NCBI GenBank assembly: GCA_965649825.1
Contig: OZ287698.1
Location: forward strand, 1,317,949 to 1,381,948
DNA from: Penicillus capitatus
Taxonomy: Eukaryota; Plantae; Chlorophyta
Direction: 5' to 3'
DNA length: 64,000 nt
The notes below the pieces were generated by a model. That model did not search any database and was not told the origin of the DNA. It saw nothing but the letters and a program-made list of their open reading frames with translations. Below, in pieces: positions 8,504 to 24,300 of this stretch. Each line of letters starts with the position of its first letter. Position 1 is the first letter of the stretch. Made by a program: the position numbers and the translations under genes.

Positions 8504-9011
8504 ATGCGATTCTTCTTCGCCCTCTTACTGCTTGCCACTTGCGTGCCGTCGTCTGTCTGTGCGTCCGGTGAATCCGTGGTCTACGCATGCTGCGACCTTG
8601 GCGACTTCGAAACAGCTGGTGGCCACATCGTCTTCTCTCAGAAAAAGAACGGCGGTCCGACGTTTATTGCTGGTTGTCCTAGACAGACATAGGCGTCAGT
8701 GTCTCGAAAACGTCTTGTTTTCAGGTTTCATTACAAATGTCACGACGGGGTTACACGGTTGGCACATTCACGAATTCGGTATCACTCCAGGAGATAATCC
8801 ATGCGGCAGTGCTGGAGGCCACTTCAATCCTCTGGGTAAGTTTCCGGGCAAATACAACTAGACACAGATTTGGATATTTGGATCCAGATATGACGCATGG
8901 AGCTCCGGATGCCGAAGTGCGTCACATTGGTGACTTGGGTAACTTTGAAGCGAACGAATTCGGCGTCGGTTTCGTCGCAACGGCCGATACGCAGATAACT
9001 TTGGTGGGGCC
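8504..9011 (+). pseudogene. SOD: Secreted Cu/Zn superoxide dismutase, 5' part, interrupted by the LTR element
   Basis: Signal peptide [20 protein letters not shown]; introns 8673-8724 and 8836-8888; motifs [23 protein letters not shown] and RHIGDLGN. The frame runs into the LTR after ...ITLVGP. Confidence 0.93.
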
Positions 9012-9622
9012 TGTGAAGAACTCCCCCCGGCACCCTCTTCCTGCACCTCCCTCTCGACGTCCTCGGCTTGGACGACACGTATCTCTCCCTCGCCTTGGCC
9101 GGGAGGTGGAGGTGGAGCATTGTTGCCGGAGTCGTTCCCGTGTTGGCTCATCTCACAAGCGCAGCGGAAGTCTTGGAATTGGATGAGGATGGGCGAAAGC
9201 TCGGAGGCCACACAAACAGCTTTTGCAGCAAAGAGCGACTTGTTACAACTTTGGGAATAGACAGCGAATGTTTTTGACAGATTGTATGCGGTTCAGAACA
9301 CAAGTGTAAACTTTTGATGTTTTAAACGAAAGGTGGTTTATGTGTCCGACCCTCGTTTAAATACCCAGTCCCCGATGTGACAGTAGGAAAAGTATAAGAA
9401 GTTCAAGAGTGAGTTCATGGTGAGGTTCCGAATGAGACGTAGGAAGTTCATTACGAAACTCTAGAAGTTTCCTGAGAAGCTCAGCGTGAACTTCGCAGGG
9501 ACTCACTCCTTGTCATCGCGACTCAGCAGCGACGGTTACGTTGCGTAGCCAAGAGTGAAAGCAAGACATCACTACTGTCACCGTCACATCACCGTTTCCT
9601 GCACTTCGCGCCTTTCTTCACA
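9012..9622 (-). repeat. 3' LTR (611 bp)
   Basis: No differences from 16928-17538 found by eye; 9-bp terminal inverted repeats TGTGAAGAA...TTCTTCACA. Confidence 0.97.
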
Positions 9623-9748
9623 TGGGCGCACCCGTATGTCCGTATGCGCAAACTCCGAAATTGCGGAGCAAAAGAAAACTCAACCCGTACACAAACCTAA
9701 GCTATTGGTGATTCACTTGCAGGAAGCCCCTACTGGGCCGCGCGTTTG

Positions 9749-10753
9749 TCACACACGCGGGTCTGGAATGCCGATTCTGGTAGTCTCTGCCTGGTGCAGT
9801 ACACCGTTGACTCTGTCGATGGAGAGACGGAACGGGCCCATCACTTCTCTTCCCAATCTCGTCTCCACTCTCTCATTTACCACCATAAGGTGGAGAATGT
9901 GCGTCTCAAATCCCAGCTTCACTCTTGCGGACGTGTATCCGATCACCTCGCTGACTTCTCCATCGGGTCGTACCACACGTACCTCGATGCCAAAGCCTGG
10001 GGGAGGTGGTCCGTGCATGAGGTGAACACGGAGGCCGAGAAGTTCGGCCGTTCTGCGTCCGACGACGTGTCCCGAGAGCTCAGGATCCACAAGGAATCGG
10101 TGCGGGAGGGGAAGTTCCCCGAGTTCCCCTGCCGTGATGCACCTTGTGCCGGGACGACGGCGCGAGGCGAAGGGCGATGGCGGCGGTGGTGGAACGTCCC
10201 GAGGTGAGGACGGCCGAGGTGCCCTCGGCCTCACAGGTGGAGGTGGGGGCGGGTTCCCCATTCCTTGGCGGGAGGTGCCTTCCCCTTGTCTTCCTCGTGC
10301 CCTCCTTTGCTGTCCTCGCCTTGCTGTCCTGCTTCTCGGACCGGTTGCTCCCACCGGCGCCTCCAGAGCCGTCGACGTGCCACCGGCCTCCTCCTCGCAG
10401 CGCCTCTCGATTTCGGTGATGAGGTCGGCCAAGGTTAGGGGGCGGCAGAGCTCCCTGATTTCCGCCGTCCGGGCTTCTCTCAGGCTCCGTTCCGCCGCGG
10501 GCGTGAGGCTCTCCGAGGAGGAGGCCGGTGCCACGCGACGGAGGCTGGTCAGCCGGGCCAGGTTTCCTTCTGAGGTTGAACTGCTTCGTTCCCTCTTCAT
10601 GGCAAACCTAACCAACGCTTCGAAGAGGTAGAACGACAAGAACACCGAGAAGCCGATGCAAAATTCCTGTGCCACCGCGGTCCACGAATCAGCGACTATT
10701 CCCAGAATGACGGCAAGAATGAGTGCGAAGAAACTGAACACAACGAAAGACAT
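9749..10753 (-). CDS. Retroelement ORF3 (334 aa): two N-terminal TM helices, Arg/Pro-rich linker, degenerate retropepsin-like domain
   Basis: Hydrophobic N-terminus. The C-terminal FLVDPELSGHVV...RLSIDRVNGVL aligns by eye with the ORF1 protease MLVDSGSSVCVM...WSLDFAGNRLV. Confidence 0.8.
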   Translation of the reverse strand: MSFVVFSFFALILAVILGIVADSWTAVAQEFCIGFSVFLSFYLFEALVRFAMKRERSSSTSEGNLARLTSLRRVAPASSSESLTPAAERSLREARTAEIRELCRPLTLADLITEIERRCEEEAGGTSTALEAPVGATGPRSRTARRGQQRRARGRQGEGTSRQGMGNPPPPPPVRPRAPRPSSPRDVPPPPPSPFASRRRPGTRCITAGELGELPLPHRFLVDPELSGHVVGRRTAELLGLRVHLMHGPPPPGFGIEVRVVRPDGEVSEVIGYTSARVKLGFETHILHLMVVNERVETRLGREVMGPFRLSIDRVNGVLHQAETTRIGIPDPRV

Positions 10754-10791
10754 ATGCGAGCGAATGGTGAAATCCCGGTGCGGGCGGTCCC

Positions 10792-10797
10792 TTTATA
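10792..10797 (-). promoter_or_regulatory. TATA box of a putative internal promoter for ORF3
   Basis: Minus-strand TATAAA starts 44 nt before the ORF3 ATG, in the 274-nt pol-ORF3 spacer, with an initiator-like TCACCATTC about 25-30 nt downstream. Confidence 0.6.
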
Positions 10798-11027
10798 CCC
10801 CCGTAACCTCCGAGGACACGTGCCCAGCGCGCGCCCTGGCTGGCGGTTATCCTATGGTTCGCCCAAAGTTCATGACATCCGTCGGGAGCTTCGCTCCGCT
10901 GGAGGAAGCTATCTTCCAACCGTTGGGAGTTTCCTCACGCATTTGGTCATCCGTCGCAAACCGTTATGAACTTTTGGAAGACAAAGGTGTATCCGTCAGT
11001 AACCCGTCGGATTATCTAATGAGTGCG

Positions 11028-13889
11028 TCACATCTGCAGCAGCCGTAGCTGGTGCGAGTGACATGACCGGCGATTCCGCCCATCCAGTGTTTCGACCTCG
11101 ATGATATGCGGAGTGATAATAGCGCGGACGCGCCATCCCGACTCCCATTGGGCCGCTAGCTTATGCGCTGGCCGCGGCACCATGATTGCGACCTTGTCTC
11201 CAACTCGCAGATTTCTTCTCGTCGGGATGGTCCGCTCATGTCTCGCTCTTCTTCTTTGGCGCTGGCCGTCCGAGCGTTCTCGCGCCCTTTTTCTGATCCT
11301 TTCCAGCTCTGCGTCCGGGAGCCTGGTGCCATCGGGTCGTTTGCCTGTCATGATGAGCCTCGGGGCATATCCTGTGGCGGAGTGCCACGAGCCATTATAT
11401 GCCGCCTCCACGCGTTGGATGAGTGCTGGCCACGGCGCGCTTGGACCTTCTCTTCGGATACGGCCTAGAATGGTGCCAATTGCTCGTTCCGCCATTCCAT
11501 TGCTCCAGTGAGCGTAGGCAGGAGACAGTGCCATCTCCACGCGGTGCCGGCTGCAATACTCTTCGAAGTCAATGGACACGAAGGCTGCGCCTTGGTCACT
11601 CACGAGCCGGCGAGGGGGCCCGAAGTGATATATCCATTTACGCAGGCCCGCCTTCGCGGCCTCGGCCGTTGGCCCCGCTGAGGCTGTGAGCAGGACATAG
11701 CGGCTGAATCCGTCTATCATGAGAAACACGTGCACGTCATCTTCCTCCTCTTCCCAGTGTATGGGTCCGAGAAAATCGCAAAAAGCCGTGTCGTTGGGGC
11801 AGGGGCAATCCCACGAGCCCCAGACGGGCCGCTGAATGGGTCGTCCGTAGGCCTGACATTGCCTGCACCCTTGGACAAACTGTTGGACATGCGCTTTCAT
11901 TCCTGGCCAGTCTGCTCCCATTGCTTTGAGGTTCCTTAGCGTCGTCTGCCAGTTGAAGTGCCCTTCGTGAGCCTTCTTGATCTGCCTCAGCTGGCCTTGT
12001 GTTGGGCCCGTCGTTGCCTGAGACACCTCAGCTACACCCTTTCCCTTACGGGGTCTGGATAGGAGGTCCGCGCCTCGGTTTTCTGCCCCGGGAACGAACT
12101 CGACAATGAAGTTTTCGTTCCCCAGGAGCCATCCCAGTAGGCGCATCACTCGCTTGTCCTTGAGACTTGGCGCGCTGGTGCTCAGTTGCTCGGCGACCGC
12201 TTGGTTGTCCGTCCGGATGAGCAAAGGAAAGTCCCCTCGTAACGGCTTTGTGGCTTGACAGGCCCACACGATTGCCTTGAGTTCCCCGAGGAAGGATGAA
12301 GTCACTTCCGGCACACTCTTGCTTCCGAGGTCGACGAGGTGCTCGCAATCTGGCCCTTTGGCCCATAGCAGATATCCTGCGTGCTCCCCAGACCAATCCG
12401 TCTCGAGAATGTATTGCGTCGTCCGGAGACCGGGCAGTTCGAGCAATACCTGTCGATCGAGGGCTCGCAGCAGCACCTCCCAGACTTCCCGTCGGGCTTG
12501 GCCCCACCACTCGTCGTCCTGTTTTTTCGCCTTGGCTTCCGCGAGCAGCTGTCGGAGGGGCGCTATCAATCTTTCGAGGTCCACAATGGTTCGCCTTAAA
12601 TAGGAGAGCACTCCGATGAGGCGCTCGAGATCTTTCCAGTGCGTCACTTCCCCGAGTTGGGTCCAACGGCTGCGGAAGTACTCCGTTAGCGTCCATGACC
12701 CATGCGACAGTTCCATTCCCAGGAACTTGACTTTCGTCATCAGGAGCTCGGTCTTCGCGAGATTGACCTTGAGTCCGAACTCCTGGAAACGGGCGAAGAT
12801 GCTACGGACGCGGTCGCAGAGTTCTTCGGGAGTGACGCCGCCTATAAGGAGGTCGTCGGCGTATTGAACCGCACCGAGCCCCTGAACGATCTCGGCGACG
12901 CGCTCAGCGAAAAGGATCGGGCTCCAGGACCATCCCTGCGGCAGGCGCTTCCAGGCGTAGCGGCGGTCTTGCCAGGTGAAGGCAAACGCAGACTGCAGCT
13001 CTGGGCCCACCGGGATGGCGAAGAAACCATCCTTGAGATCCAGCTTTGCGAAGTATCGCCACGCTGGATCCACATCCCATAGTCGCCGCCAGACGTCGAT
13101 CTGGGTCATTCCATGCTTCTTGAAGTGAGCGTTCAGCCAACGAAAATCGTTGGTGAACCTGTAGCTTCCATCCTTTTTGGGGATGGGATACAGGGGGCTC
13201 AAGGCCACGCGCTCACCCATGGAGACTGGTCGTAGATAGCCGCGCTGAACGTAATGTTCAAGCTGCTCCGCTATCTTGCGTCGGTCGGCGACTTGCTCCG
13301 TTTTGTAGGATGTTCGCAACCCTTGCTCTCTGGGTGGCGTCCAGCAGACTTCGTCGGCTCTGACTCGGAGGGGCTCCATTGCGGGCACGATAGGGTGTCG
13401 GCTTAGGTCGCTCACGTCAGGAAAACGACTCGCCAGCTCGTCTCGCAGGGACTCAGCGAGAGTGTCGACGGCGACCGTGTTGATCTTGGCCAGCCGGACT
13501 ACCTCGATGCTGTCGTGTCCATGTAGGGAAACGAGGGGCGTCGTCGGAGTGATTCGGATCACTCTTTCTGACGTATTGTAGACCTCACAACGTATCATTC
13601 CTCCAGACGTCACCACTACTCCAGACAGAACTTCGGGCCGTTGGAAGCAGCTAGCTATTGTGACGCCGCCTTCTACTTCTATCTTCCACGGGAGGTACCA
13701 GCGTTCCCAAGTTCTCGGCGGCAAGAATCTTGGCTTTCCACTCTGCAGCTGGACTCCCTTTGGAGTGATTGAGATCCCGGTTCCATCCTTGATTTCCCAC
13801 TGCTGGTGCACGCGAACAATGCCGCCCCTCCCGTGGCTTTTGGAGGGGGCAGCTAGTTTGGGCGGTGTGCTTCCTGTACTGCCGCGCAC
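11028..13889 (-). CDS. pol: Pol: dUTPase-like fold, reverse transcriptase, RNase H and integrase, expressed by -1 frameshift
   Basis: RT: PKKDGSYRFTNDFR, KLDLKDGF, LPQGW, YADD. RNase H: ETDWS, GELKA, RTDN, ADLLSR. IN: HEGH...CRQC, CDFLGP, VSDQG, MAERA, and a GPY/F-like tail. The ORF has no ATG start (GTG at 13889). Confidence 0.97.
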   Translation of the reverse strand: MRGSTGSTPPKLAAPSKSHGRGGIVRVHQQWEIKDGTGISITPKGVQLQSGKPRFLPPRTWERWYLPWKIEVEGGVTIASCFQRPEVLSGVVVTSGGMIRCEVYNTSERVIRITPTTPLVSLHGHDSIEVVRLAKINTVAVDTLAESLRDELASRFPDVSDLSRHPIVPAMEPLRVRADEVCWTPPREQGLRTSYKTEQVADRRKIAEQLEHYVQRGYLRPVSMGERVALSPLYPIPKKDGSYRFTNDFRWLNAHFKKHGMTQIDVWRRLWDVDPAWRYFAKLDLKDGFFAIPVGPELQSAFAFTWQDRRYAWKRLPQGWSWSPILFAERVAEIVQGLGAVQYADDLLIGGVTPEELCDRVRSIFARFQEFGLKVNLAKTELLMTKVKFLGMELSHGSWTLTEYFRSRWTQLGEVTHWKDLERLIGVLSYLRRTIVDLERLIAPLRQLLAEAKAKKQDDEWWGQARREVWEVLLRALDRQVLLELPGLRTTQYILETDWSGEHAGYLLWAKGPDCEHLVDLGSKSVPEVTSSFLGELKAIVWACQATKPLRGDFPLLIRTDNQAVAEQLSTSAPSLKDKRVMRLLGWLLGNENFIVEFVPGAENRGADLLSRPRKGKGVAEVSQATTGPTQGQLRQIKKAHEGHFNWQTTLRNLKAMGADWPGMKAHVQQFVQGCRQCQAYGRPIQRPVWGSWDCPCPNDTAFCDFLGPIHWEEEEDDVHVFLMIDGFSRYVLLTASAGPTAEAAKAGLRKWIYHFGPPRRLVSDQGAAFVSIDFEEYCSRHRVEMALSPAYAHWSNGMAERAIGTILGRIRREGPSAPWPALIQRVEAAYNGSWHSATGYAPRLIMTGKRPDGTRLPDAELERIRKRARERSDGQRQRRRARHERTIPTRRNLRVGDKVAIMVPRPAHKLAAQWESGWRVRAIITPHIIEVETLDGRNRRSCHSHQLRLLQM
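13821..13862 (-). promoter_or_regulatory. -1 programmed ribosomal frameshift signal
   Basis: In-frame heptamer C CCA AAC (13862-13856) directly before the ORF1 TAG, followed by hairpin GCTGCCCCCTCC-AAAAGCCAC-GGGAGGGGCGGC. Pol lies in the -1 frame. Confidence 0.85.
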
Positions 13890-16714
13890 ATGACCGAGCG
13901 CCCATCCGGGGCCACGAGTCGGTTTCCCGCGAAGTCCAAACTCCAGCCGAAATCTCGCAGAGCGTTGACGCCGACGATTGGGTGCTCAGGCCCGTCTACT
14001 ACGAGAAATGGCACTTGTCTTGTTTCTCCGCCGATGTCTACCGGGAGGCCCACTCGGCCTCGAACCTGAGTGGCCACGCCGTTGAAAGCCTGGACTTCCA
14101 TTGGCTCCGGGAGGGGCTGGATTTCCCAACCGCCTTGTACGCAGCGTTCCGTGGGCATCACGCAGACGGAGGATCCCGAATCCACGAGCATCTGGACTGG
14201 ACTAGCGCCCTCGGCCAGCTTAGCGCGCACGTAGTAGAGCCGCGATGGGTCACTACTTGTGGCGGCGTCCCATACCGCTGCCACTGGTGGCCTGTCGCTT
14301 GGTCCCTCATCTGGTTGTCTCGGGAGCTCACTGACCGGAGGCTGAACCACTTGCTGCCAGAAGAGTGGGCACTCGTTAGTTGCGTGTCCGGATGCGTTGC
14401 AATTTGCACAGCGTCTCTGGTTGGGGCGCCTTGGCGTATGCGTGACTTGCAGCGATGGTCCTCCAACGTGTGGAGCCCGTCTAGGTATTGGTGACGCCGG
14501 GCGCGGTGCGGGAGGTCGGACCATCGGCGGAGGCGGTGGACGTGCCGCCGCAAGGGGCCTTCTGTCCATTTCCAGTTGGTGGAGTCGGTCCAGAATATTT
14601 TCGTATGTCTCGAAATTTGGCGGCAATGCCGGGCTCCGCGAGTGTGGCAACTCTTCGTCTTCACCATCACTGACAGGGCGGAGTTCCCACGCAAGTCGTG
14701 GTTTCGTCCGACGTCGGTCTTGGGTTTCGTCAGAAGCGTAGCCACCTGACCGCTGTCCCTGGCGTCCTCGGCCTCCAGGCGCTCGACCCCCTCGTCTTCC
14801 TCGTCCTCTCTGCCCGCCTCCTCTTCTGTCGCCGCGGGGCGCTTCCTCCCGTGGAACTGGTGGGGACGGCGGTGTGTTTTGCGGAGTCGCTGGAGGGGCT
14901 TCGGGCCTTGGCGCCTCTGGAGCCACTCTTCCCGCTGGTGGCGCGCGGTCTTCAGGCTGACGTGGTCCGGGATTGTTCGTCGACACTTGGGCCACCTCTT
15001 CGACTCTTGGTGCTGTTGGCGACGGACCTTGAACGACTGCCCGTCCCCTGTTCTCCTGTTGCGGAGATGGCTCACTGGTTTGTTCTTCTTGGTGCCCTTG
15101 TCCCGAACTCTGGCTGCTTCGTCCTTGACTCTCCGACCCTTGGCTGCTTCGTCGGCTACGTCGCCCTCTGGCGGCGCCCGCTCGTGGTGTCCTTGGACTC
15201 CGCTGTCGCGGGGAGGCCGGGGCCGGTCGCTCCAGCACAAACTCCTGCCCCAACTTATCCACAAATATCCGGACCATCCACCAGCCGAGTTGCAGGATCC
15301 GGCGGATGAGTCGGAACGGTAGCGCACAAATGGCGACCACCCATTCCACGATCTTCTCGACGGCTTTCTGCAGCGATTCCATGAGGTTCAATCCTCCGTG
15401 GATCATATCCACGGTTTTCTTGAGCAGAGCGCCCAGCACAGCGATTACGCACATCATTACGAAGATCACTATGCCCCAGCCCCAAAACGGTAACCAGGAG
15501 CAGAATGAGGCGAGCAATCCGAGTCCGCTGCGGAGCCACGGCCAGGCGGAAAACAGGTTGCCGGTGGTCTTTGCTCCCCAGCGCTGAAAGTCTTCGAAGG
15601 TGTCCTCGAGTTGCTCCCTTAGGCGTTGGGTGTCGAGATTGTTCTCAATGATACCGTCCTGCCTTGCCTTATCGACCAGCTCAAGCGCCTCTTCGCAGCG
15701 CTTCCTTGCGTTGTCGCAGTGACGCCTGAGCCGGGTCATTGATTCCTCAATTCCTTGCATCTGCTTACTCAGCGAAAGAGTGTTTGCATCCTGGCTTTCT
15801 TTGATCTTCTTTTCCAGGTCGGCGAGCTGTGCCTGGGACAGTTTTCCACTCCTCAGCGCTTCGTCGCGCACCGCCCTAGTCACGTCCGATGCCAATTGAT
15901 TCATCATGCGGTGCGCCCCGGACAGTGTCTCTTCGATACGTTTCTGCCCTTGGGACAGTGGTAGGGCGAATGCTTCGAGCTCCGCAGAGCGCTTGCTTTC
16001 GTAAAGCTTGCGTTCTGCCTGCATGTGCGCAAACATGTGGTTCATCTTACTGAGTTGGAGGATGAGTTGTGCGTCCAAGCCAGAGTTCTTAGTGGATTGT
16101 GCATGACTTAGCGTGTCCACGAAAAGCTCGGCAATTGGCTTGGCCCACGACGTCTTGGGGTCTAGACCGACATATGCCCCCAGCGCCGCCTTCATGCTTG
16201 CGGTAAATGCCGAGTTGAGTTGGAGCTCGTCCCACGCGAAGTCCGTTGTCGGGACGCATTCCGATATCCAGCCCTTCGTATTAAATTTCCATGTCGTTGT
16301 CATCTTTGACCCCCAGGGGCAGCCATCCGGCTGACGTTCGAAGTCACTGAACGCCGCGTAGTATTCGGCGAAACGTTCTTTAGGCGTTTGCCCCTTGTTT
16401 CGTGTGAGAATGACGACGGTCCCGATTAGTCCCAGGAGGAGAAGGGTGTGCAACCGGGAATACCAAATTGCCCTCCATCGCGCCCACGTACGGGGTGGGC
16501 GAGGATTGACGGCTGGAGGGGGTGCGTCCGCTTCTGGTGCGACAACGGGTTCGCCCGCTGGGGCCACCCCAGGTCGGGCGGCGACCGGGGCTCGTCTTCT
16601 TGTCCACCAGTCCTGTAGCTTCTCCAATTGTCTTCCTCCCCATTGGTCGAGATCCGTCAGAGTTTGCTTGAACGCCCGGGCGTTCTCGAAGATAAGCTCC
16701 TCAAATCTACTCAT
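13853..16714 (-). CDS. Retroelement ORF1 (953 aa): TM, coiled coil, TM, Pro/RGG-rich region, CCHC zinc knuckle, aspartic protease
   Basis: TM1 at about aa 88-104 and TM2 at about aa 411-431; CANCNASGHATNEC at 14369-14410; LVDSGS at 14174-14182; IVGVNAL. No capsid motif recognised. Confidence 0.9.
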   Translation of the reverse strand: MSRFEELIFENARAFKQTLTDLDQWGGRQLEKLQDWWTRRRAPVAARPGVAPAGEPVVAPEADAPPPAVNPRPPRTWARWRAIWYSRLHTLLLLGLIGTVVILTRNKGQTPKERFAEYYAAFSDFERQPDGCPWGSKMTTTWKFNTKGWISECVPTTDFAWDELQLNSAFTASMKAALGAYVGLDPKTSWAKPIAELFVDTLSHAQSTKNSGLDAQLILQLSKMNHMFAHMQAERKLYESKRSAELEAFALPLSQGQKRIEETLSGAHRMMNQLASDVTRAVRDEALRSGKLSQAQLADLEKKIKESQDANTLSLSKQMQGIEESMTRLRRHCDNARKRCEEALELVDKARQDGIIENNLDTQRLREQLEDTFEDFQRWGAKTTGNLFSAWPWLRSGLGLLASFCSWLPFWGWGIVIFVMMCVIAVLGALLKKTVDMIHGGLNLMESLQKAVEKIVEWVVAICALPFRLIRRILQLGWWMVRIFVDKLGQEFVLERPAPASPRQRSPRTPRAGAARGRRSRRSSQGSESQGRSSQSSGQGHQEEQTSEPSPQQENRGRAVVQGPSPTAPRVEEVAQVSTNNPGPRQPEDRAPPAGRVAPEAPRPEAPPATPQNTPPSPPVPREEAPRGDRRGGGQRGRGRRGGRAPGGRGRQGQRSGGYASDETQDRRRTKPRLAWELRPVSDGEDEELPHSRSPALPPNFETYENILDRLHQLEMDRRPLAAARPPPPPMVRPPAPRPASPIPRRAPHVGGPSLQVTHTPRRPNQRRCANCNASGHATNECPLFWQQVVQPPVSELPRQPDEGPSDRPPVAAVWDAATSSDPSRLYYVRAKLAEGASPVQMLVDSGSSVCVMPTERCVQGGWEIQPLPEPMEVQAFNGVATQVRGRVGLPVDIGGETRQVPFLVVDGPEHPIVGVNALRDFGWSLDFAGNRLVAPDGRSVMCAAVQEAHRPN

Positions 16715-16863
16715 GACTTGCTGGTTCTCGCCAGGGGGCGCATCTTCCTGGGCCGGGGGAGCGGCCGCTGGTTCGGCAGCGGCTTGTCTTTCTTCTTCGC
16801 GCCTTTGTGCCTCTTGTCGTAACCAACCAAGATGTTGTAATAGCGCGTCGTCAGGTACCCTCC

Positions 16864-17067
16864 TTAATTCAGGAGGGGGTCTTCCTCTTGAGGCTGCTGT
16901 GGCGGTGGACCGTTCGCTCCGAAACCATGTGAAGAACTCCCCCCGGCACCCTCTTCCTGCACCTCCCTCTCGACGTCCTCGGCTTGGACGACACGTATCT
17001 CTCCCTCGCCTTGGCCGGGAGGTGGAGGTGGAGCATTGTTGCCGGAGTCGTTCCCGTGTTGGCTCAT
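16864..17067 (-). CDS. LTR-initiated upstream ORF (67 aa), possibly the true N-terminus of ORF1
   Basis: ATG 17067 lies inside the 5' LTR and reads [17 protein letters not shown]...QQPQEEDPLLN*. The ORF1 frame is open across the same span in the -1 frame. Confidence 0.45.
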   Translation of the reverse strand: MSQHGNDSGNNAPPPPPGQGEGEIRVVQAEDVEREVQEEGAGGSSSHGFGANGPPPQQPQEEDPLLN

Positions 17068-17538
17068 CTCACAAGCGCAGCGGAAGTCTTGGAATTGGAT
17101 GAGGATGGGCGAAAGCTCGGAGGCCACACAAACAGCTTTTGCAGCAAAGAGCGACTTGTTACAACTTTGGGAATAGACAGCGAATGTTTTTGACAGATTG
17201 TATGCGGTTCAGAACACAAGTGTAAACTTTTGATGTTTTAAACGAAAGGTGGTTTATGTGTCCGACCCTCGTTTAAATACCCAGTCCCCGATGTGACAGT
17301 AGGAAAAGTATAAGAAGTTCAAGAGTGAGTTCATGGTGAGGTTCCGAATGAGACGTAGGAAGTTCATTACGAAACTCTAGAAGTTTCCTGAGAAGCTCAG
17401 CGTGAACTTCGCAGGGACTCACTCCTTGTCATCGCGACTCAGCAGCGACGGTTACGTTGCGTAGCCAAGAGTGAAAGCAAGACATCACTACTGTCACCGT
17501 CACATCACCGTTTCCTGCACTTCGCGCCTTTCTTCACA
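16928..17538 (-). repeat. 5' LTR (611 bp)
   Basis: Copy of 9012-9622, followed by TSD GGGCC. Confidence 0.97.
17272..17279 (-). promoter_or_regulatory. TATA-like box in the LTR (copy at 9356-9363)
   Basis: Minus-strand TATTTAAA, placed upstream of the uORF and ORF1 in the sense direction. Confidence 0.45.
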
Positions 17539-17543
17539 GGGCC

Positions 17544-21399: not shown

Positions 21400-24300
21400 A
21401 TTCACCTGGTTGCAGAAGATCAGAAATTTTCGAAGGGACGCACAAGAGCAGTCCTTTCCATCAGGTCTGGAATCCGCACTGAGAGCAGCATAAAATCTCT
21501 GACAATTCAGGTTGTCGCCGATTACTCTATGAGCGTTGAGGTTGAATAAAAGAGTGCCGACAAATACTTGAATAGCATTGCAGGTAAGTCATTTTATATG
21601 TCACGGTCACGTCGATCATGGTTGGCCTACCGTAAGCCAACAGATTGTGGAAATCATCCATTCATCCAAGTAAATGTTCTTTTGTTATTGGTAGCGGTAT
21701 TGAGAGTATGCATGTGTCTTATATTAATTCCCGCACGAAACAACAACTGCTTCGTCTCAACAGATGAATTCTCTAATCTGAATCGAAATGTACTGTCGGG
21801 AATCGTGTGACAACACCATTATAAAACTGTAAATCGAATCGCTCGCGACGACATCGATGACAATGCACTCAGACTTACCACTAGAAAATCAAGATTAATT
21901 ACAGGCCGAGTGCCGTCCTTAAATACATGCGATGGTCAAGGATTCCTAACCTTAATTTCCTAACAGCTGCGAACTTGTGCGCGAGTTCAACAACCATACC
22001 TCTATCGTTATGAGGAAGTTGCAAGGGTGTTCTCCATCTGTCGCTCTCCATTGCTTTGGAGCTCCTGGATGGCTGTTAGATGCGCGCAACAGTCGCTATG
22101 TTGTCATCCGCGCTTCGCATGCCAACCTCCAACATGTACAACGAGTACTCAGGAACCCGATGAACAGTTTGTTGATAACAGTATCTCATGTAAACTGAAG
22201 AACAAGGCGTGATAGGAGCTGTGTTGAGGCGATTGGCGCCGATGTGACACAAAGACTCCCCAAGTTTCTGGATGAAAAGTTGTGTTGTGTCGGATGTTGC
22301 GGAGTCGGTTGAGCCAGGAGGCGAACCTGGCTAAAACTTGGAAGACCAGAAAATCGAATAGGTACAGAGTGAACCTTGTGGCACAGCCACTTGAGATACT
22401 CCGGTTGTCAGAAGCTCATCAAAAAGTTCCACTTGCTGTCTCGGAAGAATTCCCGAAGTAAGAGGCAACAATACTACATATTTAATTGGTTGTCTTGTTG
22501 CGAGTTTGCTTATCAATTGTTCCTCGTTCTGTAGATTACCTCATCTCCGGGTTTTCTTTCTGCCTCCAATCTCTGTTGTAACTCAAATGTTACGGGCTTC
22601 CCTGCTCGTTTCGACAAGTGTTTTTGTCGCATTGATTCCGCGGAAAAGGTCGAGGAGGAGGCATGCCGTAGCATTTCTTGCGTCTTCTTTTGGGTAGTTT
22701 CTCCATGGAAGGTTTTGTGGTTTTGGACAATTATGGCACCTTTGTTTTCCGACCTACAACGTGAATTGCCGAATTTTGACATGAGCTTCGTGAGTTTTAG
22801 GAAAGCATGAGTTTGAATCGCAGTTTATTTTACAGTTGCTTTCGCCAATGGCATTTTACGACCCATTACTGGCCGCTAGTTAATTGTTCAAATGCTTCTC
22901 AAACTTCTAGCTTTCACCCGTTCATCTTTTATTGGATCATTCGTCTTTTGGCGACGTCTCAGAAGTGTTATGAGCGAGTCAGCAGTAGGCGCTTCCCAAT
23001 AGAGACGCAGTTCGATGTCCGAGTGGAGGGATATCAAATGTTGATCAGCATCAGGAGTTGCAGAGAAGTAAGTTTACTAATAGGATATTTAGGCTTAGAG
23101 GCCAGAAGTGTTCGACCTTGTTAGACACTGGAAGCACTGTCAATGTTTTACCGGAAGCAGAACCGAGGAAATTGAGAATGTCCATCTCGACCGACCTGTC
23201 CGAAAACCAAAAGCATGTGAGGACTTGTAACAGGCCCAATAGGCAAGTGCTTGACCGGTTACACTCAAGATTGACATTAGGCCTTGGGAGACAAAAGCAT
23301 GTTTTCTTGGTTCGGCGAGTCTTTAAGGTAATCTTAGGTTTACTAAGATTGAGCGACTTAGCAATGAATATCGATTCAACACGTGTAAGGAAAACAAAGG
23401 GAACAGGTTCTTTGTGATGAGTACAAGGACCAACCACCGTAATGTCATCATGTGGATGTGGCTATGGCTGTGTTTTAAGCATCTTGTTTGGATTCGAAAG
23501 GCCCAAACGGACGATCGTGATTAATTAATTGGGAGAAATCGCCGGGTTTCGTTTAATTTACAAAGATGGTAGAACTGGACTATGTCATGGGGAACCTTCA
23601 ATTGTTGGGCCAACGGACTGCATTAGTGAAGTGTTATCCTTTACATTGTCAAGTTAAAGCGCAAGCACAATTTTTCCAAAGCTATCAGCACCTAGATTGC
23701 TTCCATCTTATTAGGTCGATGAAAAGGGAGAGAGAGTTGAGCTCGAATCTGGAATGCATCAACAGCCTCAGTCCGTATCGCAGAAAACGATTTTGCTTGA
23801 GGCGCATTCGAGGGTTGAGCTTTTTGTATGTCAAGGAATTTTTGACTGTGTTATTTCTCTGCAAGTAATGTTGTTGTGAATCCTTCTCAGTTTCTTTCGA
23901 AAGAGAAATAATAAATGCTGTTCATTCTTTGACGCGTCGCAGTTTGACCAGTTCAGAATTGATTTCATGTTGTGAAAGAACGTGGAAGATTTCATAGATG
24001 TATAAAACAAACTAACGGCCTTGTAGAGAGTACATCAGTACGCGAATTAGTTTACGGGGGTCACTTCGTATCTTTTGAATACAAAGAACTTTGATCACCG
24101 AGGTGACGTTTCGGCCACCAGACACGGTCCCGTTTAGACAGAGAACAGACCAATTGCTTTTAATATCCATGCGATTTTCAATGACACAACCAACGACAAT
24201 CATTGAAAAACATACGATGACAAAAGCGTCCAATCTACAGTGTAAGCAATCAGGCGCGTACAGAATTCGGTGACAGCTTTTTATGTGCATTGTTTTCTTC

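Follow-up and report, generated by a model that had tools for sequence, protein, structure and literature searches.

A third gene with a predicted membrane anchor and a retropepsin-like domain of altered active-site motif in a Ty3/gypsy-type retrotransposon of Penicillus capitatus

The element and its insertion site

The locus lies in a window of 64,000 nucleotides from Penicillus capitatus, the window being the whole stretch of DNA that was analysed, and it holds an LTR retrotransposon of 8527 bp on the minus strand, which runs from 17538 to 9012 and carries three genes (ORF1, pol and ORF3). The features outside the third gene are as follows.

16928-17538, minus strand: 5' LTR, 611 bp, with termini TGTGAAGAA...TTCTTCACA, to which the 3' LTR is identical
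9012-9622, minus strand: 3' LTR, 611 bp
17539-17543, minus strand, with a second copy at 9007-9011: target-site duplication GGCCC, within a Cu/Zn superoxide dismutase coding sequence
16916-16927, minus strand: primer-binding-site-like TGGTTTCGGAGC, directly after the 5' LTR
13853-16714, minus strand: ORF1, with hydrophobic segments, a coiled-coil-like region, a CCHC knuckle and the retropepsin motif D845-S-G
13856-13862, minus strand: heptamer C CCA AAC where ORF1 stops, a predicted -1 frameshift site with a GC hairpin after it (region as a whole 13810-13870)
11028-13985, minus strand: pol frame from stop to stop, with the Pfam domains RVT_1, RT_RNaseH, Integrase_H2C2 and rve in Ty3/gypsy order

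The LTRs are direct repeats with TG...CA termini, the target duplication of 5 bp fits the 4-6 bp of Ty3/gypsy-type elements, and the domain order PR-RT-RH-IN revealed by Pfam is also that of Ty3/gypsy. The element is therefore of the Ty3/gypsy type, and its family is multi-copy and recently active. Membership in Troyka was considered and rejected, because the available text of PMC12440569 gives CG...CG termini and a 3-bp target duplication for that group, while the element has TG...CA and 5 bp. Because the 611-bp LTRs are identical, GGCCC is duplicated and the superoxide dismutase coding sequence is interrupted, the insertion is very young. The flank of the element matched Sod_Cu (E 8e-7), and the host coding sequence is split into 8737-9011 and 17539 onward on the plus strand. 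Contigs from 4 runs (at most 3 samples, 2 studies) matched the element; three cover 30/30 bins and one covers 29. No priming tRNA was identified for the primer-binding-site-like TGGTTTCGGAGC, and no polypurine tract was found before 9622, there being no purine run next to the 3' LTR. At 9620-9670 (minus strand), where such a tract is expected, we observed two small hairpins with a CCA end just before the 3' LTR (z -2.0).

At the Gag position, ORF1 resembles a membrane protein, with hydrophobic segments around a Cys-containing, coiled-coil-like region. The CCHC knuckle is present, and none of 16 ORF1 proteins matched a Pfam capsid family; this combination of a membrane-like protein and no detected capsid may be as unusual as ORF3 itself. 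P0046, a sister ORF1 protein of 96% identity, has its start farther upstream, within the LTR, and its frame runs on across the primer-binding site. Compared with P0046, the 5' part of ORF1 at 16860-17070 (minus strand) lies here in a different frame from the rest of the gene, and this copy or its assembly is therefore broken there. The pol frame differs from that of ORF1 and overlaps its end. C CCA AAC and the GC hairpin after it, whose z is only -1.7, are likely to be a -1 frameshift signal; a P-N ending was found in all 19 ORF1-type proteins of more than 900 aa that were compared. Among PDB structures, the reverse transcriptase matched that of foamy virus best (6e-35), followed by Ty3 (2e-25) and other retroviral enzymes (2e-22 and weaker). 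It shows the retrovirus-like motifs LPQG and YADD (11028-13598, minus strand), and the integrase also has its best PDB match in the foamy virus integrase. By eye, we take the approximately 150 aa before the reverse transcriptase (13400-13850, minus strand) to resemble a degenerate dUTPase; this stretch at the start of pol had no Pfam or PDB match.

Elsewhere in the window, an isolated, weak aspartyl-protease-like frame with a DTG motif at 22989-23414 (plus strand; Pfam E 0.005) is probably a remnant of another element. Three very long frames of 3377, 2387 and 2512 aa occupy 39101-63792 on the minus strand, and by eye we presume that they encode a giant, midasin-like AAA+/von Willebrand A protein.

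The third gene and its putative promoter

9749-10753, minus strand: ORF3, 334 aa, between pol and the 3' LTR
10601-10753, minus strand: ORF3 aa 1-51, predicted two-helix membrane anchor (hydropathy, predicted helices, alignment)
10148-10387, minus strand: ORF3 aa 123-202, variable RG-rich and Pro-rich linker (20-59% identity, closest relative excepted)
9752-10147, minus strand: ORF3 aa 203-334, retropepsin-like domain (hereafter the C-domain), with D-P-E at 10087-10079
10792-10797, minus strand: TATAAA box, putative internal promoter of ORF3, the sole TATAAA on the sense strand of the element
10763-10772, minus strand: initiator-like TCACCATTCG, some 30 nt downstream of the TATA box, with a predicted start near 10767

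ORF3 is a real, conserved gene. A single-sequence search returned relatives in 6 clusters (53-94% identity), and a profile search of 1.84 billion representatives returned 8 proteins; two of them are P0037 (332 aa, E 7e-35) and the shorter P0042 (253 aa, E 5e-4), with C-domains 35% and 27% identical to that of the window. Conservation in relatives, on which an earlier, sequence-only reading of this DNA had staked its case, is thus borne out by intact copies down to 27-35% identity in the C-domain. Among ten closer relatives the C-domain is 59-95% identical, whereas the linker shows 20-59% identity in all but the closest; the C-terminal extension DRVN...TTRxGxxD is conserved. Relatives of ORF3 and ORF1 agree in the length of their longest contig in 11 pairings, which suggests that they occur in the same elements. 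All five ORF3 variants among those listed (40 of 1432, from related copies) were synonymous. In the anchor-coding region, 9 of the 19 variants listed (from 40 of 42 rows) were synonymous, against an expectation of 24-31%, and none of the 19 introduced a stop. Scans of the JGI metagenomes and of viral contigs found no ORF3 locus; the scan of the JGI metagenomes for ORF1 found 16 loci, which carry an unrelated protease family and showed no ORF3 match.

The N-terminal part of ORF3 contains two hydrophobic segments (aa 1-29 and 30-51 by hydropathy) that are predicted as helices with a pLDDT of about 75, in agreement with the transmembrane helices first proposed, and we likewise found no zinc knuckle. 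Two relatives, P0001 and P0042, were called without the anchor. A basic motif, Met54-KRERS, follows the anchor and is kept in the alignment by the closer relatives and P0037; Met54 (10594, minus strand) could start an anchor-less form, or the motif could act as a nuclear-import-like signal. A 38-nt inverted repeat lies within the coding region at 10369-10541 (minus strand) and predicts a long hairpin (z -4.4); the region was picked from a self-BLAST, and among 39 fixed windows along the element the strongest gave z -3.3.

The TATAAA box begins at 10797, 44 nt before the ATG of ORF3, as had been noted. This hexamer occurs 9 times on both strands of the 64-kb window, and a chance match 25-80 nt before the ATG has a probability of about 0.4%. 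Among the variants listed, which come from related copies, 0/16 positions of the TATA box and the initiator-like motif were variable, compared with 19/80 of the other positions in 10755-10850 (p 0.036, with the initiator window picked after the variant table had been viewed). A contig of greater divergence can be aligned as far as 10797, where it departs, and the initiator-like motif recurs in the loose end of another contig. The reading frame opens 13 codons before the ATG, and because this short stretch holds no pyrimidine tract with YAG, splicing into ORF3 is less likely. An internal TATA promoter of ORF3 is thus probable as predicted from these motifs.

A retropepsin-like domain with an altered motif

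BLASTP of ORF3 against ORF1 was not significant (best E 0.23; E 0.55 for the protease region). Comparison of profiles with hhalign, in contrast, aligned the C-domain with the ORF1 protease family at E 1.8e-4 with the first profile and, with distant members added, at a probability of 85% and E 5.9e-6 over 107 columns with a score of 38. Shuffling of the columns (100 shuffles) gave a score of 12.5 +/- 2.3 with a maximum of 22.4, and the maximum for 69 control segments, taken from pol and from long host ORFs, was 16.7. With one Ty3-type protease family that is unrelated (9 close sequences), the score was 17 (E 0.038), compared with 39 when the family of the element itself was used, and a duplication within the lineage is therefore favoured, as judged with this single outgroup. 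Thus, profile comparison makes the homology of the C-domain to the ORF1 protease well supported, and the alignment of the two that the sequence-only reading had called for gave the expected result.

Evidence from known structures points the same way more weakly. ASPRV1 and Ddi1 accounted for 8 of the 13 PDB matches to the C-domain profile at E<=10, and the four best matches (E 0.16-1.1) were among these 8. Single ORF3 members matched Pfam Asp_protease_2 at E 0.014-0.13, and each of the PDB and Pfam matches is non-significant by itself (E 0.014-1.1). Full-length ORF3 profiles returned only noise from the PDB. The single-sequence model of the C-domain had a pLDDT of about 32, and a full-length model from 13 sequences had a pLDDT of 46, with the C-domain mostly under 50. 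With these low-confidence models, Foldseek found no match at E<=0.001 in PDB or BFVD, and a VIA fold search matched the N-terminal helices alone. The claim of a retropepsin-like domain therefore stands on sequence profiles, and the fold assignment rests on sequence while the structure models are of low confidence.

It had also been claimed that ORF3 repeats the whole layout of ORF1 as a mini-paralogue. The claim survives for the protease domain; the membrane parts are not detectably homologous. The N-terminal parts of the two proteins could not be aligned (hhalign E 0.29 and 0.72), and the anchor of ORF3 is an N-terminal two-helix structure, while the hydrophobic segments of ORF1 instead flank a large domain. 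The RG-rich patch is present as quoted, but it is a low-complexity look-alike and not a sign of homology. The same applies to the Pro motif, which is present with 14 of 17 aa matching but is borderline against shuffles: 35/1000 composition shuffles were as good, the whole linker gave z 1.3, and z was above 2 in 5/52 comparisons of 13 ORF3 linkers with 4 ORF1 proteins, with a maximum of 3.0. The motif is not retained in most ORF3 relatives. Recent copying of the motif as DNA was rejected, since the codon is shared at just 3 of the 14 identical residues.

The hhalign alignment puts D223 on the catalytic Asp, such that D-P-E at aa 223-225 corresponds to D845-S-G of the ORF1 protease, which is the change from DSG to DPE originally described. 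In alignment A5, the site is covered by 15 of the 18 sequences (3 fragments miss it, and many of the 15 are close relatives rather than independent events). The Asp is present in 15/15, the next residue is Pro in 14/15 and Thr in one (D-T-Q), and Gly is found at the third position in 0/15, where E, Q, K, I and C occur instead. The flap glycine and the glycine of the second motif are conserved. In retropepsins, the Ser/Thr of D-S/T-G is described as essential for dimer formation (PMC7072860). Since the fireman's grip loses its hydroxyl and its backbone NH alike when Pro takes this place, normal catalysis by ORF3 appears unlikely, and we hold this view of the motif with some confidence. The description of an apparently dead protease accordingly finds agreement in a motif that is broken across the relatives.

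An alternative is that ORF3 is an atypical but active aspartic protease. It would work as a homodimer, or the ORF1 protease would form a heterodimer with it and receive its Asp, and it would cut membrane-proximal ORF1 sites or a host membrane protein. An Asp that is invariant down to 27% identity could mean catalysis of an atypical kind, and the two conserved glycines agree with this explanation. Feline foamy virus protease has Gln in place of the Gly (PMC7072860), as does the D-T-Q of one ORF3 relative. However, with Pro in 14/15 sequences the fireman's grip is gone, the third position is free to vary, and divergence is far faster in the ORF3 domain than in the active protease of ORF1 (median identity 68% versus 95%). 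We consider an active enzyme unlikely. D-P-x-x is a common helix-start motif, and the invariant Asp may be structural in this way.

Possible roles and known systems

To compare the two genes across elements, we used 36 pairs from 9 contigs, with one contig that carries two ORF3 types dropped. The identity of the ORF1 protease ranged over 85-100% (median 95) and that of the ORF3 C-domain over 59-100% (median 68), with a rho of 0.01. ORF3 domains of about 60% identity accompany ORF1 proteases of 95-99% identity; the ORF1 closest to that of the window (96%) is paired with an ORF3 domain of 60% identity, and the closest ORF3 (95%) is paired with an ORF1 of 44% identity. The ORF1 and ORF3 modules are freely shuffled. 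The rho of 0.01 gives no sign of a matched pair of ORF3 and protease, and binding of ORF3 to a near-invariant protease is compatible with the pattern.

These data bear on the explanation that ORF3 is a dominant-negative subunit, which would form a heterodimer with the ORF1 protease and limit copy number as Ty1 p22 does for Gag. Trans-dominant inactive monomers of HIV protease are known. Homology to the element's own protease and the probable internal promoter speak for such a role, and Ty1 p22, made from a sub-genomic transcript according to the available text on it, is a precedent. In addition, the beta-sheet platform of retropepsins accounts for most of the dimer contacts (PMC7072860), and the C-terminal strands of ORF3 are conserved. 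However, ORF3 keeps the Asp and loses the dimer-stabilising Ser/Thr, while the reverse would be expected of a tight-binding dead partner. Very different ORF3 types accompany near-identical proteases, and the family has reached many copies and been active recently. We regard this explanation as rather unlikely, and the scaffold that the sequence-only reading had offered as its other option fits better than a poison subunit.

Fast, modular divergence that is uncoupled from ORF1 would also be expected if ORF3 were directed at the host, as a decoy or counter-defence in which the dead protease fold binds a host factor, with the anchor and the basic KRxR perhaps placing it at the nuclear envelope. 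The separate promoter, the conserved Met-KR motif and the RG-rich linker agree with this view. However, no host target was identified, and the synonymous nature of 5/5 listed ORF3 variants gives no sign of an arms race; such a role seems quite improbable to us. The position between pol and the 3' LTR is that of env, and transmembrane 3' ORFs are known, such that ORF3 might instead be a membrane protein that resembles env or a fusogen and serves cell-to-cell spread, with an incidental protease-like domain. Its N-terminal hairpin anchor lacks a cysteine-rich ectodomain, however, no env or fusogen family was matched, and few parts of the protein are as conserved as the protease-like domain, so this explanation is very unlikely.

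Compared with these four alternatives, we favour the explanation that ORF3 is an inactive, membrane-tethered pseudo-protease that serves as an accessory binding module for maturation, with a probability of roughly 40%. Under this hypothesis, an old duplication likely placed a copy of the element's own protease domain on a predicted membrane anchor. The resulting ORF3 would be transcribed, as seems likely from the motifs upstream, from the internal TATA promoter, and the protein would be inserted in a membrane and likely be catalytically dead. It would then likely act as a tethered binding scaffold that times or localises the maturation of the membrane-bound ORF1 polyprotein. ORF1 and ORF3 could meet because both look membrane-bound. 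The least certain step is the identity of the partner, which might be ORF1 or Gag-Pol; contact with it would be made by the conserved C-terminal strands or a residual peptide cleft and not by the active-site loop.

A bolder form of this proposal is that a lineage of elements with a membrane protein at the Gag position and no recognisable capsid duplicated its protease into a separately promoted, membrane-anchored pseudo-enzyme, which would form a pair with the genuine protease and act as a switch on the activity or the specificity of the latter; we regard this proposal as doubtful. If ORF3 does regulate the ORF1 protease, it would be a natural case of retropepsin control by a pseudo-enzyme and would allow a direct test of the timing of maturation at membranes. 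The family is unusual in any case, with a membrane-bound ORF1 as predicted, no detected capsid, a foamy-like best match of the reverse transcriptase, and shuffled ORF1 and ORF3 modules.

Plant LTR retrotransposons commonly carry extra 3' ORFs, which are mostly unexplained (available text of PMC7264820). The ORF3s of the bdelloid elements Vesta, Juno and TelKA encode env-like proteins, a GDSL lipase or a DEDDy nuclease and are typically spliced, according to the portion of PMC5408684 available, and an excerpt of a study of insect elements reports small, transmembrane, fusogen-like ORFs (10.1101/2025.03.14.642691). Like ORF3, the env-like aORF-3S of plants and the bdelloid ORF3s are described in the excerpted texts as conserved between pol and the 3' LTR and often transmembrane (PMC7264820, PMC5408684). 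The products described for this group are env-like, lipase, nuclease or unassigned. ORF3 instead has a domain copied from the protease of its own element, together with a TATA box, and shows no evident splice acceptor. With the retropepsins (retroviral and Ty3 PR, ASPRV1 and Ddi1; PF13650, PF13975), it shares a profile alignment over the full domain with the Asp in register, but it differs in having D-P-x for D-S/T-G, in scoring below the Pfam cut-offs, in its N-terminal anchor and in its location outside Gag-Pol.

Two systems resemble ORF3 in expression. The internal promoter of foamy virus drives 3' accessory genes. It lies inside the provirus (available text of PMC7828637), as the putative promoter of ORF3 lies inside the element; unlike foamy virus, the element has no recognised env or transactivator, a single RNase H, a Ty3/gypsy layout and a third gene that is protease-derived. 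Ty1 p22/p18 is, in the available parts of PMC4599808 and PMC8458377, self-encoded, produced from an internally initiated transcript and related to a core protein of the element, while ORF3 is a separate gene that is about 23% identical to the protease and has a hypothetical inhibitory role. In the open-access literature searched, supplements excluded, we found no protease-derived third or 3' ORF. ORF3 belongs to the known class of extra 3' ORFs and is an unusual member of it. Most extra 3' ORFs of LTR retrotransposons lack a known origin or function (available text of PMC7264820), whereas ORF3 can be traced back to the protease of its own element, as a copy from which the active motif was lost and which has stayed constrained over deep divergence.
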